From Clostridia bacterium (GTDB taxonomy: Bacteria > Bacillota > Clostridia > TANB77 > UBA1234): a stretch of DNA of 64,000 bases. The notes under the pieces are model-generated. The model had not been told where the DNA came from. It searched no databases and saw only the letters and a list, made by a program, of their open reading frames with translations. The position numbers and the translations under genes are program-made. This document shows, piece after piece, positions 4,465-49,951 of the stretch. Numbering within the stretch: the stretch's first letter is position 1; every line of letters starts with the position of its first letter. The DNA is taken from NCBI GenBank assembly GCA_017469545.1, contig JAFUGE010000006.1:95167-159166 (forward strand). The letters are read 5' to 3'.

Positions 4465-4486
4465 GGGCGGCGTAATACGCCGCCCG
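4460..4486 (+). repeat. REP-like GTAG-hairpin repeat (variant GGGCGGCG...CGCCGCCC)
   Basis: TGTAGGGG followed by an 8-bp GC stem, a loop and its complement, then CCCG. It donates the truA TAG stop. Confidence 0.8.
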
Positions 4487-8139: not shown

Positions 8140-8167
8140 GCAGCACGGTATCACCGTGCTGCATTTT
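8140..8167 (+). terminator. rho-independent terminator after the M14 peptidase gene
   Basis: GCAGCACGGT-ATC-ACCGTGCTGC followed by ATTTT. Confidence 0.6.
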
Positions 8168-8318
8168 CGGGGTGGCAGAAAAGTGAGTGCCCTGGCAGAA
8201 ATTGGAAACGTGCGCATTTTCGGCGTCGCTGAAAATGCGCATTCTGGAAGAAATTGGAAAGATGCGCGTTTTGGGGGTGGCGGAAAAGTGTGCATCGCGA
8301 TTGCCCCTGCATTTTGTG
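8168..8318. repeat. two degenerate ~50-bp tandem units with internal hairpins, upstream of the prfA promoter
   Basis: ...GGCAGAAATTGGAAACGTGCGCATTTTCGG... and ...GGAAGAAATTGGAAAGATGCGCGTTTTGGG.... The hairpin GCGCATTTTCGGCGTCGCTGAAAATGCGC is present. Confidence 0.5.
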
Positions 8319-8383
8319 CTTGAATAAGTAGCTGGTGTGTAGTATAATAGTAGCGCAAAAATAAACTAAATTAGAGGTGCGAT

Positions 8384-9439
8384 ATGTTTGATAAACTAGA
8401 GAGCGTGGAGAAGCGCTATGAAGAATTGAATATGAAAATCAGCGACCCTGAGGTGATTGCGAATCAATCAGAGTGGAAAAAGCTTATGAAAGAGCACGCT
8501 GATATTGAGGATATTGTGGAGAAGTATCGAGAGTACAAAAAAGTTGTTAATACCATAGAAGAACTAAAGGAAATGCTAAATGACAAGGAAATGCACGATT
8601 TAGCGCAGGCCGAGCTAGACGAGAGTAAGGAAAAACTTCCTAAAATCGAAGAAGAATTGAAGCTTTTATTAGTTCCGAAGGACCCAAATGACGATAAAAA
8701 CGTTATTATGGAGATTAGAGGCGGTGCTGGCGGAGAAGAGTCTTCTCTTTTTGCGGCAGATTTGTTCAGAATGTACAGTATGTATGCGGAGAAGAAGAGA
8801 TGGAAGTTTGAAGTAATGAACTTGAATGAAACAGAGCTTGGCGGCATCAAAGAGGCATCCATTATGATAACGGGTAAGGGCGCATACAGCAGATTGAAAT
8901 TTGAGAGTGGCGTGCATAGAGTGCAAAGGGTTCCAGAGACGGAGACGAGCGGTAGAATTCACACTTCTACGGCTACGGTGGCTGTGTTGCCGGAAGTAGA
9001 CGATGTGGAGATTGAAATCAATCCTACTGATTTGAAGATAGATACATTCCGTTCTAGCGGCGCCGGTGGACAGCACATTAACAAGACGGAGTCTGCTATT
9101 AGAATTACGCATATTCCGACGGGCGTGGTAGTGGAATGTCAAACAGAGCGTTCTCAAATCCAAAACAGAGAATCGGCTATGAAAATGCTTCGCTCGAAAC
9201 TTTATGAAACAGAGCTTGAAAAGCAGAATTCAGAGCTTGCAGCCGCAAGAAGAAGCCAGGTTGGAAGCGGCGATAGAAGCGAGAAAATCAGGACTTACAA
9301 CTTCCCACAAGGAAGAATTACAGACCACAGAATTGGCCTTAGTATGTTCCAAGTAGACGAGTTTATGAATGGCGGCATAGACGAGATGGTGGATGCGCTT
9401 AATGCGGCGGATCAAGCAGCTAAACTAAGTGATGAGTAA
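8384..9439 (+). CDS. prfA: peptide chain release factor 1
   Basis: GGQ motif ([14 protein letters not shown]) and an RF1-type PxT region (QRVPETE). Confidence 0.9.
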
Positions 9440-9443
9440 AATC

Positions 9444-9470
9444 TGTAGGGGCAGCGTATTACGCTGCCCG
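9444..9470 (+). repeat. REP-like GTAG-hairpin repeat
   Basis: TGTAGGGGCAGCGTATTACGCTGCCCG. Confidence 0.85.
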
Positions 9471-9510
9471 TTTTGCGATTTTATCAATTGAAAAACAATA
9501 TTGAAATTTG

Positions 9511-9538
9511 CGGGCGGCGTGCTACGCCGCCCCTACGG
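9511..9538 (-). repeat. REP-like repeat, inverse orientation (GGGCGGCG variant)
   Basis: CGGGCGGCGTGCTACGCCGCCCCTACGG. Confidence 0.85.
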
Positions 9539-9626
9539 AAACAAATAAAAAACAAGAAAAATGTGTTGACTTATTAGACAGAAGATGTTAAAATATAAAT
9601 TGTTATTGTTAAATGGAATAATTATG

Positions 9627-9872
9627 CAAAAGACATACGGAAAGGCGAGTTTTGAAGCAATGAAATGCGTAGGATTAAAACAAGTGCTAAAGGCAATTGA
9701 GGCAAACGAGGTAACAAGAGTTTATATCGGAAAAGACGCGGAACAACACGTGCTTGACAGGATTATTAGTGCTTGTGAGGGAAAAGAAATTGAAATTGTA
9801 GAAGTTGATACAATGAAAAAGCTGGGCGAAATGTCTGGCATTGAGATTGGGGCTGCTACGGCAGCAGAATAA
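9627..9872 (+). CDS. ribosomal protein L7Ae-family protein (YbxF/RplGB-like) at the head of the str operon
   Basis: About 81 aa with the L7Ae fold signature (KQVLKAIEANEV...GKDAE...KLGEMSGIEIGAA), upstream of rpsL as in Bacillus. Confidence 0.7.
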   Translation, partial: QKTYGKASFEAMKCVGLKQVLKAIEANEVTRVYIGKDAEQHVLDRIISACEGKEIEIVEVDTMKKLGEMSGIEIGAATAAE

Positions 9873-44662: not shown

Positions 44663-44689
44663 TGTAGGGGCGGCGTATTACGCCGCCCA
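44663..44689 (+). repeat. REP-like repeat (3' CCCAC variant)
   Basis: TGTAGGGGCGGCGTATTACGCCGCCCAC. Confidence 0.8.
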
Positions 44690-44699
44690 CACACGTTTT

Positions 44700-45608
44700 T
44701 TACATTTTTTCGATTTCTTCTACTGAAAGGCCAGTGATTTCAGCAATTGTTTCTACTGGAATTCCTTTGTCCTTAGATTTTTTTGCAATTTCAATTTGCT
44801 TTTCTTTTCTACCACGTTTTTCGCCGCGTTTCTCACCACGTTTCTCACCACGTTTCTCGCCAACCTTTTCGCCCTCTGTTCTAGCATACTGTATTCCACT
44901 ATTGTAGTCTAGCTCCCATTTTCTCTTTAAAAAAGCTAATCTTCTTACAGCTTCGTCTCCCACTAAATATTCATATTCTTCGGAAGCTTCTTTGATTAAA
45001 TTATTTTTCTCCTCAGCCATTTTTACTAACTCCTTTCGTGAGTAATCAATGAATAAAAGCCATTGATCTAATTTCCTGTCAATATTGATTTCACTTCTTA
45101 AGAACTTAGGCAGTTCTATGAAGTGTATCTCTTGTTCTTCTAATGTTTTGCTTTTATTATGCTGCTCTGTCATTTTCCAGATAGTATGGTGCTCCTTAAT
45201 ATCTTTAAAATAATCGAAATTTAAGATACCAATGGCAATTGCTTTGTTTAATTCATTATATGTTTTTCCTTTTTGCAAATCGCTTGTATATAGCTGGTTT
45301 AAATAGTATGTCAATCTTTTTTCAATATTGCCTTGATTCACATTTTGCATTTCAATATCGATAAGAGTGCCATCGTCAAATTCGGCTCTAACATCTAATA
45401 TACCAACTTTATCGTCCAGGTTTTCAGGCAATAATTCTGTCTCTTTTTCGAGAATCACATCTTTGATTCTAATATTCAGAATAGCCTCAAGGAACTCTTT
45501 CACTTTCTCTTTACTTTTTACTCTGCCAAATAGCCTCTTAAAAATCACATCATTTTTAGGCACCAAAATTTCTTCTTCATTAATCATATTATACATCATT
45601 CCTTTCAA
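44700..45608 (-). CDS. Rpn-family (YhgA-like, PD-(D/E)XK) recombination-promoting nuclease / putative transposase
   Basis: N-terminal PKNDVIFKRLFG and ILDVRAEFDDGTLIDIEMQ nuclease core. Internal 12-bp tandem repeats encode (GEKR)4. C-terminal ...ITGLSVEEIEK. Confidence 0.7.
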   Translation of the reverse strand: MKGMMYNMINEEEILVPKNDVIFKRLFGRVKSKEKVKEFLEAILNIRIKDVILEKETELLPENLDDKVGILDVRAEFDDGTLIDIEMQNVNQGNIEKRLTYYLNQLYTSDLQKGKTYNELNKAIAIGILNFDYFKDIKEHHTIWKMTEQHNKSKTLEEQEIHFIELPKFLRSEINIDRKLDQWLLFIDYSRKELVKMAEEKNNLIKEASEEYEYLVGDEAVRRLAFLKRKWELDYNSGIQYARTEGEKVGEKRGEKRGEKRGEKRGRKEKQIEIAKKSKDKGIPVETIAEITGLSVEEIEKM

Positions 45609-46049: not shown

Positions 46050-46067
46050 TACACACACACACACACA
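46050..46067. repeat. (AC)9 dinucleotide microsatellite
   Basis: ACACACACACACACACAC, ~300 bp upstream of the DGR target gene. Confidence 0.9.
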
Positions 46068-46100
46068 CACACGAACGTTTCGTTAAACATAGAATTTGCT

Positions 46101-46362: not shown

Positions 46363-47316
46363 ATGAAAAATAAAAAAGGTATTTCATTAATCAGTTTAAT
46401 TATTACAATTGTTGTGATTATTATTTTAGCAACAATTGTAATCAGAGGCACAGGAGATTCTGCAGAAGAAGCAAGGTTTGCAAGATTTGCACAAGAGTTT
46501 TCGGATTTCCAAGATGCAATTGACCAACAATTTTTATTTGCATACAAAAGATATGCCTTAAAAGCGCAGAGTGTTTCTAAGGCACAAATCTATTATGGCC
46601 TAGCGACGGGACAAACAGTAACGAGCAGTACGACACCAGTGGCTGCAGGCACGGTGGCTAGCCTTAGTATTCAGCCGAGTGCGCTTTTAGGCACAAATTA
46701 TTACGAAATTGCAAATGATACGAATATTCCAAATTGGTCGGAGGATAAAGGGTACACAACAGCGAGAAGTGCAGAGCATCACTACATTACAGACGAAGGA
46801 GAACTATTTACTCTACCAGGATATACGTATAGAGAAAATGGCACAACGAGTTACTATGTGAATGCCAGCAAGTATTATACAGGCAGCATGATAGACGTAG
46901 AAGATTTAGCAAGTGGTGGGACAGATTTGGAGAAGTTACAAGCTTTGCTTTTAGGAGATCAATATTATCCTGGATATAGTTTAAGCTTATCTGATGGCAC
47001 GAGTGCAATGTGGCTAGATTATAATACGACTACAGGTGATTTTATAGTAGGATATAACGACGTAGCGTACAGAGTCGTGTATGGCGAGGATACTAATGGA
47101 GATTGGGTAATCACAAGCGTCACATCTGCAGGTAGTGTTAATTTAAGTAGCTTAGGAATGCACAGTGGATCACTTGTGACATATAGAGGAACATTTACGA
47201 GTAGCCAATACTCACAAAATAGAAGTATCTATTGGGTAAATAATATTGATAGTACAGGCTATGATTTTGGATATGATGCTTCGGGGGCGCTCGTGTCTTA
47301 CCGGATTACCGGCTAA
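46363..47316 (+). CDS. candidate DGR target protein: prepilin-like N-terminus (MKNKKG|ISLISL + hydrophobic helix), Tyr/Gly/Thr-rich body, variable-region candidate at the extreme C-terminus
   Basis: The 3' end (47278..47349) shares an adenine-free 18-nt block and a 36-nt post-stop block with the TR at 48333..48416. Between them the gene has TCTTACCGGATTACCGGC where the TR has an A-rich segment. Confidence 0.55.
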   Translation: MKNKKGISLISLIITIVVIIILATIVIRGTGDSAEEARFARFAQEFSDFQDAIDQQFLFAYKRYALKAQSVSKAQIYYGLATGQTVTSSTTPVAAGTVASLSIQPSALLGTNYYEIANDTNIPNWSEDKGYTTARSAEHHYITDEGELFTLPGYTYRENGTTSYYVNASKYYTGSMIDVEDLASGGTDLEKLQALLLGDQYYPGYSLSLSDGTSAMWLDYNTTTGDFIVGYNDVAYRVVYGEDTNGDWVITSVTSAGSVNLSSLGMHSGSLVTYRGTFTSSQYSQNRSIYWVNNIDSTGYDFGYDASGALVSYRITG

Positions 47317-47349
47317 GTGAGCCGTTGCCAGCGGTGTGAGTCGGCGCAG
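47278..47349 (+). other. DGR variable-region (VR) candidate plus IMH-like 3' element
   Basis: GCTTCGGGGGCGCTCGTG (no adenines) + an 18-nt variable segment + TAAGTGAGCCGTTGCCAGCGGTGTGAGTCGGCGCAG. Both flanks are identical to those of the TR. Confidence 0.5.
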
Positions 47350-47404
47350 TTTCTATCCTCTAAAATCCATGGCGCAGAGCGTAACATGTCAGTAAAGTGA
47401 AATA

Positions 47405-47432
47405 CGGGCAGCGTACTACGCTGCCCCTACGG
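47405..47432 (-). repeat. REP-like repeat, inverse
   Basis: CGGGCAGCGTACTACGCTGCCCCTACGG. Confidence 0.85.
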
Positions 47433-47522: not shown

Positions 47523-47966
47523 ATGAATAAAATCATGATTGCTGTGAAAGAGGTACATCCTCAAGATATATGTATGTATAAAAAAGGCTCGTTTTACCAT
47601 GTGTATGATAAAGATGCTAACATAATGGCGTATTTTTTTGGCTATAAAATAAAAGAGATAAGAGGCGGTGAGATACAGGCGGGTTTTCCGCAAGTCTCTC
47701 TTCAAAAAGTATTGAATAAACTAGAAGAATATCAAATTAATTATGTGGTAATGGATAGAAGAAATCAGTATGATGTAGATTTTAAAAAGAATTTTGCGTT
47801 GGCAAATCAATATGAATTATACTGTCGTTTGGCTCGTAAGTATACGAACTGTTTGAAGCGTATTGATAAGCTATCTCGTTTTTTGAAAGAGAATATTCAT
47901 AAGGAAGAATTTTTAGAATTAATTTCTAGATTGGAAAAAATAGCATATGAGAGAAGAAAAGTTTAA
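47523..47966 (+). CDS. hypothetical protein (147 aa) within the DGR island, low GC
   Basis: ORF with RBS AAGGAG. Overlaps the avd start by 20 nt. No HuH or other recognised motif. Confidence 0.4.
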   Translation: MNKIMIAVKEVHPQDICMYKKGSFYHVYDKDANIMAYFFGYKIKEIRGGEIQAGFPQVSLQKVLNKLEEYQINYVVMDRRNQYDVDFKKNFALANQYELYCRLARKYTNCLKRIDKLSRFLKENIHKEEFLELISRLEKIAYERRKV

Positions 47967-48300
47967 AGTCATTCAGTTTATACGAAAATTAATTTTGGAA
48001 GTGGACAAAGAGCTTGAAAATTTTCCTAAAAAGGATTTAGAGATAAAGAATAGACTTAGAACTTCAAGTTATGATTTGTTGGAACTTGCGTATGAAGCAA
48101 ATTCCACAAAAAATTTGGAGTTTAAGCAGGAATTACTAACGCGAATGATTGCAAAGATAAAAATAATGGACTTTTTACTTAATTTAAGTTATGACAAAAA
48201 TCTACTAACGGAGAGAAAGTATTTGAAGTTAGCAAAAATCATTGACGATATTGCCAAGTATACTAATGGTTGGCAAAAAAATATCGTAGGGCAAAGTTGA
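47947..48300 (+). CDS. avd: four-helix-bundle protein, DGR accessory variability determinant (Avd)-like
   Basis: About 117 aa, with a pattern matching the four-helix-bundle/Avd family (FPKK...L..Q...S). Lies immediately upstream of the TR. Confidence 0.65.
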   Translation: MREEKFKVIQFIRKLILEVDKELENFPKKDLEIKNRLRTSSYDLLELAYEANSTKNLEFKQELLTRMIAKIKIMDFLLNLSYDKNLLTERKYLKLAKIIDDIAKYTNGWQKNIVGQS

Positions 48301-48332
48301 GAAAAGCGCACTTTTTTGGTTAGGGCATTATT

Positions 48333-48416
48333 GCTTCGGGGGCGCTCGTGAATTACGAAAAACCAAAAACCGAAAAATAATAAGTGAGCCGTTGCCAGCG
48401 GTGTGAGTCGGCGCAG
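48333..48416 (+). other. DGR template repeat (TR) candidate with IMH*-like 3' element
   Basis: GCTTCGGGGGCGCTCGTG + AATTACGAAAAACCAAAAACCGAAAAATAA (21 of 30 nt are A) + TAAGTGAGCCGTTGCCAGCGGTGTGAGTCGGCGCAG. Confidence 0.5.
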
Positions 48417-48575
48417 CTTCTAAAAAACTGTGGTTGCATTGACCAATTGTAATGCAAGAGAAGTTTTAGATAGAAACAGATTTTGTCCTTTCGCTTAAAT
48501 AGCGATAAAATAAAAATAGATAATCAAATTTGTTAGTAGCTTGATAGCGAAGGGGAGTTTGATTTAGTACTATTT

Positions 48576-49541
48576 TTAATGGTGCCTTAGTATTAAGGTG
48601 CCATTTTTACATAGGGCTTTGTAAAATACCAATGTTGAGCAAAGGCCATAGAGCGAAACGTTACCACATTGATATCTATGATATTTTAACTTTGTTTTTT
48701 TCTTTATCCTTTGATGCTTAGCATAAATGCCGGCAGTATTTCTTCCTAAAAAGATAAAGTTATTTTTATGATTATAAATTCTCGTTTTCGAATTTAAAGT
48801 GAGTTTTTCTTTTGCTAGAAATTTTTTGATTTCTTCCAGACAGTGTTTTAAATAGTCTTTTGATGGGTGAAATAGTAAAAAATCGTCTTGATATCTCACA
48901 TAGTATTTTACTTTTAGTTGTTCTTTGATAAAGTGATCAAGATCATTTAAATAAAATAAAGCTAGCATTTGACTTGTCATAGTACCGATATGGAGGCCTT
49001 CAGCATTACTGTCGATAATATCAAATACGATTTTTAATGCATCTTTATCTTTGATTCTGCGTGAAATTTTTTGCTTTAAAATATCATGATTAATACTGGC
49101 AAAGAATTTGGTAATATCGCATTTTAAAATATAAAAATTTTTGTATTTTATTTTACATTTTCTTCTATACATATTTGCAAGAGCAATTCCTTTGTTTGTT
49201 CCCATTCTCTTTCTAGAGGCGACGTTTGCGTCTGACAAACACGGAAGTAGGGAGGGATATAGAATATATTTTGTTACTAGGTGATTCACGATTTTATCTT
49301 CTATGCCTTGACTATAAATTTCTCTTGTTTTGGTGTCATGAATAATAAATCTATTATATTTTCCTACTTGATAATTTCTTTCGGATAATGTTTTGTAAGT
49401 CCTTGCGATGTATATAGATTGATAGTCACGAAGCAATTCTTTTTTACGCTTGCTCATTATATTCTGCGAAATCTTTTGATAGGCGTATTTGATATTTTGA
49501 ATATTGCACATGTTTTCATACAAATTATTTTTTCTTTTCAT
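48576..49541 (-). CDS. DGR-type reverse transcriptase
   Basis: RT motifs closely parallel the Bordetella phage Brt: NLYEN..AYQK, KCDITKFFASINH, the DGR-specific motif-4 IGTMTSQ (IGxxxSQ), YVRYQDDFLLF (YxDD), and NFIFLGRN. Start at MKRKNN has RBS GGAGAA. Confidence 0.85.
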   Translation of the reverse strand: MKRKNNLYENMCNIQNIKYAYQKISQNIMSKRKKELLRDYQSIYIARTYKTLSERNYQVGKYNRFIIHDTKTREIYSQGIEDKIVNHLVTKYILYPSLLPCLSDANVASRKRMGTNKGIALANMYRRKCKIKYKNFYILKCDITKFFASINHDILKQKISRRIKDKDALKIVFDIIDSNAEGLHIGTMTSQMLALFYLNDLDHFIKEQLKVKYYVRYQDDFLLFHPSKDYLKHCLEEIKKFLAKEKLTLNSKTRIYNHKNNFIFLGRNTAGIYAKHQRIKKKTKLKYHRYQCGNVSLYGLCSTLVFYKALCKNGTLILRHH

Positions 49542-49606: not shown

Positions 49607-49951
49607 CTATTTTTTTGCTACGGCTTTTTTAGCAACAGCTTTTTTAGCTGGAGCCTTCTTAGCGGCTGGTTTAGCAGCTACTTTTTTAGCTGGAGCTTTC
49701 TTAGCAGCTGGTTTAGCAGCTACCTTTTTAGCTGGAGCTTTCTTAGCAGCTGGTTTAGCAGCTACCTTTTTAGCTGGAGCAGCTTTCTTAGCAGCTGGTT
49801 TAGCAGCTACTTTTTTAGCTGGAGCAGCTTTCTTAGCAGCTGGTTTAGCAGCTGTCTTTTTAGCTGGAGCAGCTTTCTTAGCAGCTGGTTTAGCAGCTAC
49901 CTTTTTAGCTGGAGCAGCTTTTTTAGCTGCAGTTTTCTTTGCTACTGGCAT
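49607..49951 (-). CDS. Ala/Lys/Pro-repeat histone-H1-like basic protein (tandem 36-bp repeats)
   Basis: MPVAKKTAAKKAAPAKKVAAKPAAKK... RBS AGAAGGGGGGG lies upstream. The plus-strand ORF 49419..49976 (AFLAG repeats) is its mirror image. Confidence 0.6.
   Translation of the reverse strand: MPVAKKTAAKKAAPAKKVAAKPAAKKAAPAKKTAAKPAAKKAAPAKKVAAKPAAKKAAPAKKVAAKPAAKKAPAKKVAAKPAAKKAPAKKVAAKPAAKKAPAKKAVAKKAVAKK

Follow-up and report, generated by a model that had tools for sequence, protein, structure and literature searches.

The stretch analysed here, hereafter the window, comprises 64,000 nucleotides (nt) of a Clostridia genome (contig JAFUGE010000006.1, positions 95,167 to 159,166) and carries a diversity-generating retroelement (DGR), the cassette of which runs in the order target gene, MSL, Avd, template repeat (TR), spacer and convergent reverse transcriptase (RT) gene. 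The target gene (46363..47316, + strand), which is preceded by a ribosome-binding site, GGAAGGA, ~10 nt 5' of its start codon, encodes a protein of 317 amino acids (aa) that is deposited at NCBI as a "hypothetical protein" (MBQ9267057.1) from a Clostridia metagenome-assembled genome (MAG) of the ruminant gut. A pilin module (residues 1 to ~170; 46363..46872, +), delimited by an AlphaFold2 (AF2) model and by hhalign alignment to a pilin family encoded in a type IV pilus operon, is followed by an orphan C-terminal module rich in Thr, Ser, Tyr and Gly (residues ~171-317; 46873..47313, +), at the end of which lies the variable repeat (VR). In our judgement, the protein is probably a modular type IV pilin-like protein and the cognate target of the adjacent DGR. 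Homology and operon context support the pilin-like interpretation, and we infer both pilus assembly and present-day diversification of the target.

The N-terminus of the target, MKNKKG|ISLISLIITIVVIIILATIV, opens with a short hydrophilic leader (MKNKKG; 46363..46380, +) that ends, within 35 residues of the N-terminus, in a Gly, as in class III signal peptides. In alignments to geopilin, PilE1 and other pilins of solved structure, this Gly falls in register with the site cut by the prepilin peptidase. It is followed by a 21-residue hydrophobic tract, alpha1-N (ISLISLIITIVVIIILATIVI; 46381..46443, +), with Ser at +5; residues 7-27 are uncharged throughout, and the target has a single hydrophobic segment. 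Pilins usually have Glu at this position (Glu5), which is generally held to be important for their assembly. Among the open reading frames (ORFs) of the 64 kb window, the N-terminal motif is unique to the target. The original prediction had described an ORF with a basic leader, a Gly and a hydrophobic stretch in which Ser stands for Glu5, and had called its body rich in Thr, Ser, Tyr and Gly. Both descriptions hold, the four residues making up 38.8% of the target and 44% of its residues 61-317, compared with 21.3% in the 33 window ORFs of at least 250 aa. The target is also within the PilFind criteria (taken from PMC3244431, and including the motif [GAS]-x4-[DE]) as regards length (317 aa, limit <350 aa), a hydrophobic tract of ~21 residues and a single transmembrane segment.

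Database searches with the target returned 42 homologues; the closest of them (our P0002-P0010) share 37-51% identity with the target across 50-81% of its length. These have in common a module of ~170 residues with the signature HYITDEGEVFxLPGY...WYVNxSKYY, after which their C-terminal parts differ and include Big_2, LRR_5 and DUF6273 domains; several end in WLASP...GVRPVVSL. The homologous N-terminus is near-invariant (G-[IV]-S-L-I-S-L-I-I-T-I-I-V-I-I-I-L-A-A-I), and eleven N-terminal positions (G6, S8, L9, L12, I14, T15, V18, I20, I21, L22 and A23) do not vary among 20 homologues that otherwise diverge, all 20 of which have Ser or Val at +5. This conservation far exceeds the needs of a membrane anchor, and the likeness to pilins is more than a matter of hydrophobicity. 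The Pfam model N_methyl (PF07963) aligned in register, its positions 1-26 of 27 with residues 1-26 of the target (E 0.008), and sub-threshold N_methyl matches were also found in the targets of related DGRs. When the family profiles were compared with all PDB sequences, type IV pilins were retrieved almost exclusively, at marginal E-values of 0.006-0.1, and below E 0.05 the matches were type IV pilins only. Geopilin, Streptococcus sanguinis PilE1, PilA, MshA and gonococcal pilin were among them, all in register at the cleavage Gly. Similarly, pilins accounted for eight of the 11 PDB matches of a profile built from the operon pilins.

The decisive evidence came from genomic context, through a family of pilins encoded in a type IV pilus operon. 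Between the target family and these operon pilins, hhalign gave a probability of 99.35% (E 6.3e-21) over 163 columns covering target residues 1-168. The two alignments were independent, one (A4) consisting of the target and P0002-P0010 with P0032 left out, and the other (A5) of 11 operon pilins. P0032 (262 aa, MKKNQNG|VSLISLIITIIVVIILAG) is encoded at the end of a conserved type IV pilus operon of uncultured Clostridia, the order of which is PilM/N-like (fusion), PilO-like, small ORF, PilD, three small pilins, T2SSE ATPase (PilB), T2SSF platform (PilC) and P0032-type pilin. Three further members (P0044, P0050 and P0055; 36-46% identical to P0032) occupy the same operon position, so that the terminal place was seen in all four family members checked, on contigs from different samples and in one NCBI Clostridia MAG; copies of the operon lie at positions 1721-10789 of contig L088 and 1768-10837 of L090, and also on L094 and L095. 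The pilin-like character of the target was thus upheld, residues 1-168 being homologous to the terminal pilin of a type IV pilus operon.

Within this operon, the canonical KG|YSLIEV (GxxxE) is present in only one of the three small pilins, and the largest pilin (250-280 aa) has Ser, Ala or Thr at +5 in place of Glu. Ser5 of the target is therefore a trait of the lineage and not evidence against pilin identity. The prepilin peptidase of the operon has an A24_N_bact domain, its relatives additionally Peptidase_A24. Its family comprises 3889 proteins; among the 120 matches listed, A24_N_bact was found in all and Peptidase_A24 in most, and the source annotation of some reads prepilin peptidase. 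MBQ9279680.1 was considered as a prepilin peptidase from the same genome as the target and set aside, as it is ~12,600 accession numbers away from MBQ9267057.1 and probably belongs to another genome.

In the AF2 model of the N-terminal module (pLDDT 86.3, pTM 0.74), residues 9-66 form an unbroken helix and residues 73-82 a short one, with five to six beta-strands within residues 112-173; as a prediction, this has the general shape of a pilin. The C-terminal module is of a different kind. When the C-terminal 153 aa were searched exhaustively with HMMER against 1.84 billion representatives, nothing but the query itself and one spurious repeat-protein match came back; no Pfam domain was found in the module, and hhalign gave a probability of 0.2% against the lectin-type VR domains of 25 relatives. 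The AF2 model has pLDDT <50 for residues 184-213 and 265-317 (30-46 in the latter). The lectin-type VR domain of the relatives is absent from the target, and no C-type-lectin or Ig-like fold around the VR was detected with Pfam, HMMER or hhalign, to which a very divergent fold may be invisible.

Downstream of the target, the MSL accessory gene (MutS domain I-like; 147 aa; 47523..47966, +; PF01624, E 2.8e-07, 31.2 bits, cut-off 20.6) overlaps the ORF of the Avd accessory gene (117 aa; 47947..48300, +; bAvd, 38.6 bits, cut-off 40; DivGenRetAVD, E 2e-11). The MSL accessory class has been described as architecture D (Wu et al., 2018; PMC5758913). In this DGR lineage, the TR is bounded on its 5' side by the motif TAGGGCAT (48321..48328, +), which is conserved in the relatives where it was read (L011, L012, L014, L023, L026 and L033). 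A spacer RNA on the 3' side of the TR (48423..48520, +) has two predicted hairpins (48434-48457 and 48491-48505) and a box, AGAGAAGTTTTAGATAGAAACA, which is conserved with its flanking hairpins in the matching region of L007-L035; compensatory changes were observed in 11 of the 20 predicted pairs across 10 loci. This spacer probably corresponds to the cDNA-priming spacer of the Bordetella phage DGR. The RT gene (48576..49541, -; RVT_1, E 1.1e-16) encodes the motifs IGTMTSQ and YQDD. Because TAGGGCAT, the difference between the initiation of mutagenic homing (IMH) sequence and its TR counterpart (IMH*), and the spacer hairpins are all kept in the window, the cassette looks intact. Two further candidates for cassette components were rejected. 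The GC-rich hairpin 3' of the IMH (47406..47426, no strand assigned) is one of 32 copies across the window, which rules it out as a DGR-specific cruciform, and the AKKA-repeat gene upstream of the RT is absent from that place in 20 relatives.

The VR occupies the last 13 codons of the target (47277..47313, +). It starts with an adenine-free block of 19 nt that is identical to the start of the TR (47277-47295 = 48332-48350) and continues with a core of 18 nt (47296-47313, TCT TAC CGG ATT ACC GGC, encoding S Y R I T G) that differs from the TR mainly at TR adenines. The stop codon and an IMH-like block follow (42 nt; 47314..47355, +), matching TR positions 48381-48422 with a single mismatch (T47350 in the VR vs C48417 in the TR; AGTTTCT vs AGCTTCT). 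This IMH/IMH* position also differs, as C/T or A/T, in seven of eight aligned relatives, and in L015 there is a TR/VR indel at it. The TR itself (48332..48422, +) is a mini-TR, consisting of the 19-nt block, a 30-nt core and the 42-nt IMH*-like block. Its core, AATTACGAAAAACCAAAAACCGAAAAATAA, reads AAT TAC GAA AAA CCA AAA ACC GAA AAA TAA, ending in an in-frame TAA, and a second in-frame TAA opens the 42-nt block. Between the matching blocks there are thus 18 nt in the VR vs 30 nt in the TR, and in the best gapped alignment of the cores differences fall at seven of the 10 aligned TR adenines vs one of the eight other bases. Gapless adenine-tolerant scans of the target and the RT neighbourhood against the whole window returned only the 42-nt block and its edges, and no other gapless DGR-type repeat of at least 40-50 nt was found in the window. 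The original prediction had placed the variable segment at the very C-terminus; this is where the TR match lies, in an unusual form.

Comparison with the relatives indicates how the mini-TR may have arisen. In the 5' block one recognises the start of their TR, (WL)AS, and in the 3' block its end, GVRPV(A/V)S; the AAY-rich core of ~90-130 nt between these has been replaced here. Beyond the stop codon of the target, traces of the 3' end of the ancestral VR (GGTGTG...AGTTTCT...CTCTAAAATC) are left. Judging from these alignments, the mini-TR appears to derive from the relatives' canonical AAY-rich TR of 110-175 nt by internal replacement, and the TR seems to have been remodelled and the change then copied into the target by homing. 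On this account only the last 6-10 codons, and possibly the length of the tail, can now vary.

The RT has many relatives in MAGs of uncultured gut Clostridia; searches returned 130, the closest group of which is 52-66% identical to it. Eight relatives that were analysed have the gene order of the window and a VR-to-TR spacing of 1061-1143 nt (1067 nt here); their TR/VR pairs are canonical, 80-175 nt long, and nearly all substitutions in them fall at adenines of the TR. The cassette architecture recurs at about 30 Clostridia loci, where nearly all targets begin with a related pilin-like helix and finish in a canonical lectin-type VR. A target with a related N-terminus, G|ITLIALVITIIV (KG|ITLIALVITIIVLLILAGV, with Ala at +5), was found in 16 of 31 Clostridia-type RT loci, and in a seventeenth the related N-terminus has Ala at -1; twelve of these pilin-like ORFs end in the signature W[LV][AG]S...RP[VL]. 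Most RT loci that have no pilin-like ORF are cut by contig ends. In an hhalign comparison with the operon pilins, the relatives' N-termini matched with a probability of 97.4% (E 1e-11) over 50 columns, that is, over the leader and alpha1 but not beyond. Tandem pilin-like genes with lectin-type VR ends were observed at two loci (L011, 8165-9679 and 10419-11618; L022, 1491-2624 and 3284-4417), and at the former a VR matching the TR is present only in the RT-proximal gene (8165-9679).

Elsewhere, the window (37.7% GC) looks chromosomal, with ABC transporters, dnaX, ybaB and recR nearby. A GC-rich palindrome of 21 nt, GGGCRGCGTANTACGCYGCCC, occurs in 32 copies in the window vs none expected by shuffling, for example at 4465, 9449, 16692, 19593, 20668, 23684, 25183, 33271, 36207 and 41068, and further at 44668, 45873, 45938, 46106, 46247, 46306, 47406, 53369 and 53423. 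Most copies lie a few bases 3' of stop codons, five are in the 750-nt gap upstream of the target, and the family looks like REP-like (repetitive extragenic palindromic) or terminator-like repeats. The same gap contains an (AC)11 microsatellite (46051-46073, ~290 nt 5' of the target start), which has one AC unit fewer in L092, a near-identical contig from another sample, and where slippage in the promoter region could occur. Just upstream of this repeat-rich gap lies a gene for a PD-(D/E)XK transposase (44700-45608, -; PDDEXK_2, E 7.6e-47), which carries a GEKR repeat at its C-terminus. Directly upstream of the RT gene and on the same strand, a histone-H1-like ORF (49607-49951, -) encodes PAAKKA-type repeats with a period of 42/45 nt, the number of which varies between samples (114 vs 100 aa); its absence from this place in 20 related RT loci indicates that it is probably not part of the cassette.

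If the target is a modular type IV pilin, it would enter the membrane, lose its leader to a prepilin peptidase that cuts after Gly6, and join a type IV filament via its alpha1 helix. Because of the extra C-terminal module of 145 residues, which would point outward, a minor or tip subunit would be most likely. The TR RNA would be reverse-transcribed with misincorporation at adenines, and the cDNA would replace the segment between the 19-nt and IMH-like blocks, rewriting the last 6-10 codons. The C-terminal tail may change in length too, the TR core being made up of A-tracts and having TAA TAA in frame. The outcome may be ligand-binding variation at the tip of a pilus.

Several results weigh against this interpretation. 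The target has Ser and not Asp or Glu at +5, so that the PilFind motif fails and a PilFind-type rule, the check that the original prediction had proposed, rejects the protein. N_methyl scored 16.2 bits, short of its cut-off of 21.2, and the NCBIfam models PRK10506 and PRK10574 scored 16-17 bits vs cut-offs of 138-158. Foldseek searches of PDB retrieved no pilin, the E-values being at least 0.13 with the full model and at least 2 with the N-terminal module. No pilus assembly genes were detected in the 64-kb window or in the flanks of related DGR loci, as searched with motifs and with tblastn using the L088 operon proteins in the window and all fetched loci. There is no RT beside the five closest homologues of the N-terminal module that were checked (P0002, P0004, P0006, P0008 and P0021), which means that the pilin-module family is broader than the set of DGR targets. 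As to the repeats, the core alignment requires two 6-nt gaps (12 nt) and their placement is not unique; moreover, all six adenines in the 36 nt of the 42-nt block upstream of the C/T position of the IMH are unchanged. Either mutagenesis has its boundary at an unusual distance from the IMH base, or it prefers A-tracts; the finding is mildly unexpected. Finally, no VR variants were found. The target is identical on five contigs from at least three samples, and its cluster at 90% identity has two members. These contigs are consensus assemblies and near-clonal (99.85-100% identical), with differences confined to a repeat gene, a microsatellite and two other sites, so that identical VRs are only weak evidence against ongoing diversification.

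Some of these results are what would be expected if the N-terminus were an uncleaved signal-anchor, the target being a surface-tethered type II membrane protein that never enters a filament and whose likeness to pilins reflects the ancestry of the module. The missing Glu5, the scores below those of curated pilin models, the lack of pilus genes nearby and the Foldseek result all fit such a protein, and a large survey (PMC8144416) has cellular DGR targets generally membrane-anchored. We nevertheless consider it unlikely, as an anchor has no need of 11 invariant residues, including the Gly at -1 and a pilin-like ILA(A/T)I stretch, the homology extends past the helix over the whole 170-residue module, and the homologous family resides in pilus operons that encode a prepilin peptidase and likewise lacks Glu5. 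An ordinary Sec-secreted protein cleaved by signal peptidase I, which the basic N-terminus and the following hydrophobic stretch might bring to mind, is very improbable: the 21-residue tract runs without a break into a modelled helix that reaches residue 66, much longer than a Sec h-region, no small-x-small site follows the tract, and the conserved Gly precedes it.

A different objection concerns the DGR rather than the module, and it is compatible with a pilin N-terminal module. The retroelement may be in decay, having lost its TR core and gained stop codons, with the last homing event cutting off the lectin-type domain and leaving a frozen remnant. The TR core of 30 nt, as against ~90-130 nt in the relatives, points in this direction, as do the TAA TAA inside the TR and the vestiges of the ancestral VR 3' end beyond the stop codon; the orphan C-terminal module, with its low-confidence model and its dissimilarity to the relatives' VR domains, and the lack of VR variants in the cluster of the protein are consistent with it as well. 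On the other hand, the ORFs of RT, Avd and MSL are intact, the spacer hairpins and the IMH/IMH* difference are retained, and the 19-nt and 42-nt flanks still match the TR with a core that differs mostly at adenines, which suggests homing after the remodelling of the TR; in addition, turnover could not show among contigs as clonal as those sampled. We give decay a substantial chance, somewhat short of even.

The interpretation of the target as a DGR-coupled modular pilin can be set beside several known systems. Modular type IV pilins have been described in S. sanguinis, where PilB carries a vWA module and PilC a lectin module, both thought to be displayed on the filament for binding (Raynaud et al., 2021; PMC8179133). 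As in these proteins, the target combines an N-terminal pilin module and a class III-type signal peptide with a bulky C-terminal module in a monoderm host, and its gene may lie outside the assembly operon. The signal peptides of PilB and PilC are canonical (IPR012902), and their processing by PilD has been shown experimentally, whereas the target has Ser at +5, misses the curated thresholds and is distinguished by its orphan module and its DGR. GspK-type minor pseudopilins, which have no Glu5, cap the filament tip. A tip position of GspK is also considered in PMC8179133. The target resembles GspK in a pilin-like N-terminus without Glu5 and in a larger globular part, consistent with a tip position; however, neither its sequence nor its fold showed any similarity to GspK, and since the largest operon pilin also has no Glu5, its absence may not mark a tip subunit.

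Mtd and TvpA are the canonical variable proteins with a C-type-lectin fold. The cassette agrees with that of MSL DGRs (PMC5758913) in having a target, MSL, Avd, TR and RT, a VR at the 3' end and an IMH/IMH* pair, and differs from those and from canonical variable proteins in the convergent RT, in a short core of A-tracts instead of AAY and in the in-frame stops; in addition, no lectin fold was detected in the target, in which only ~6-10 codons can vary. TR/VR indels have been reported in some DGRs. The closest precedent for a DGR acting on a surface filament is provided by the adhesive components of Bacteroides type V pili (bioRxiv 10.1101/2024.11.15.621889). In both cases a gut-bacterial DGR acts on a subunit of a surface filament and not on a phage tail fibre, filament membership being inferred here. 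Type V pili belong to a diderm phylum and are assembled by another pathway, which depends on lipoprotein and protease, whereas the target has a module of the type IV pilin kind and comes from Clostridia. A survey of VR-bearing domains lists a "GspG-type pilin" among the rare ones without further analysis (PMC11661182), and that of Roux et al. (PMC8144416) reports membrane-anchored cellular DGR targets and does not mention pili. A literature search on DGRs with type IV pili, pilin or prepilin returned no paper that makes the link, coupling of modular type IV pilins to DGRs was not described in the literature searched, and the only filament-linked DGR case found in it was the Bacteroides type V pilus. 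What would be new here is therefore a DGR target on a type IV pilin module, together with an atypical mini-TR.

More broadly, we tentatively propose, as a conjecture that we hold to be rather less secure than the reading of the target itself, that a gut/rumen Clostridia lineage of chromosomal DGRs (MSL-Avd-TR with convergent RT) diversifies modular type IV pilins. The N-terminal transmembrane anchor noted in surveys would then be a class III signal peptide without Glu5, hypervariable domains would be carried on type IV filaments, and the system in the window would have been reduced to an A-tract mini-TR that varies the sequence and length of a tail without a lectin scaffold. The mini-TR would be a natural test of the minimal DGR template and scaffold. 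If the proposal is true, hypervariable binding domains would be placed on retractable, long-reach filaments, and modular pilins would gain a built-in mechanism of diversification. Models of adhesion, phage-receptor dynamics and cell-cell recognition in abundant gut Firmicutes would then have to change.

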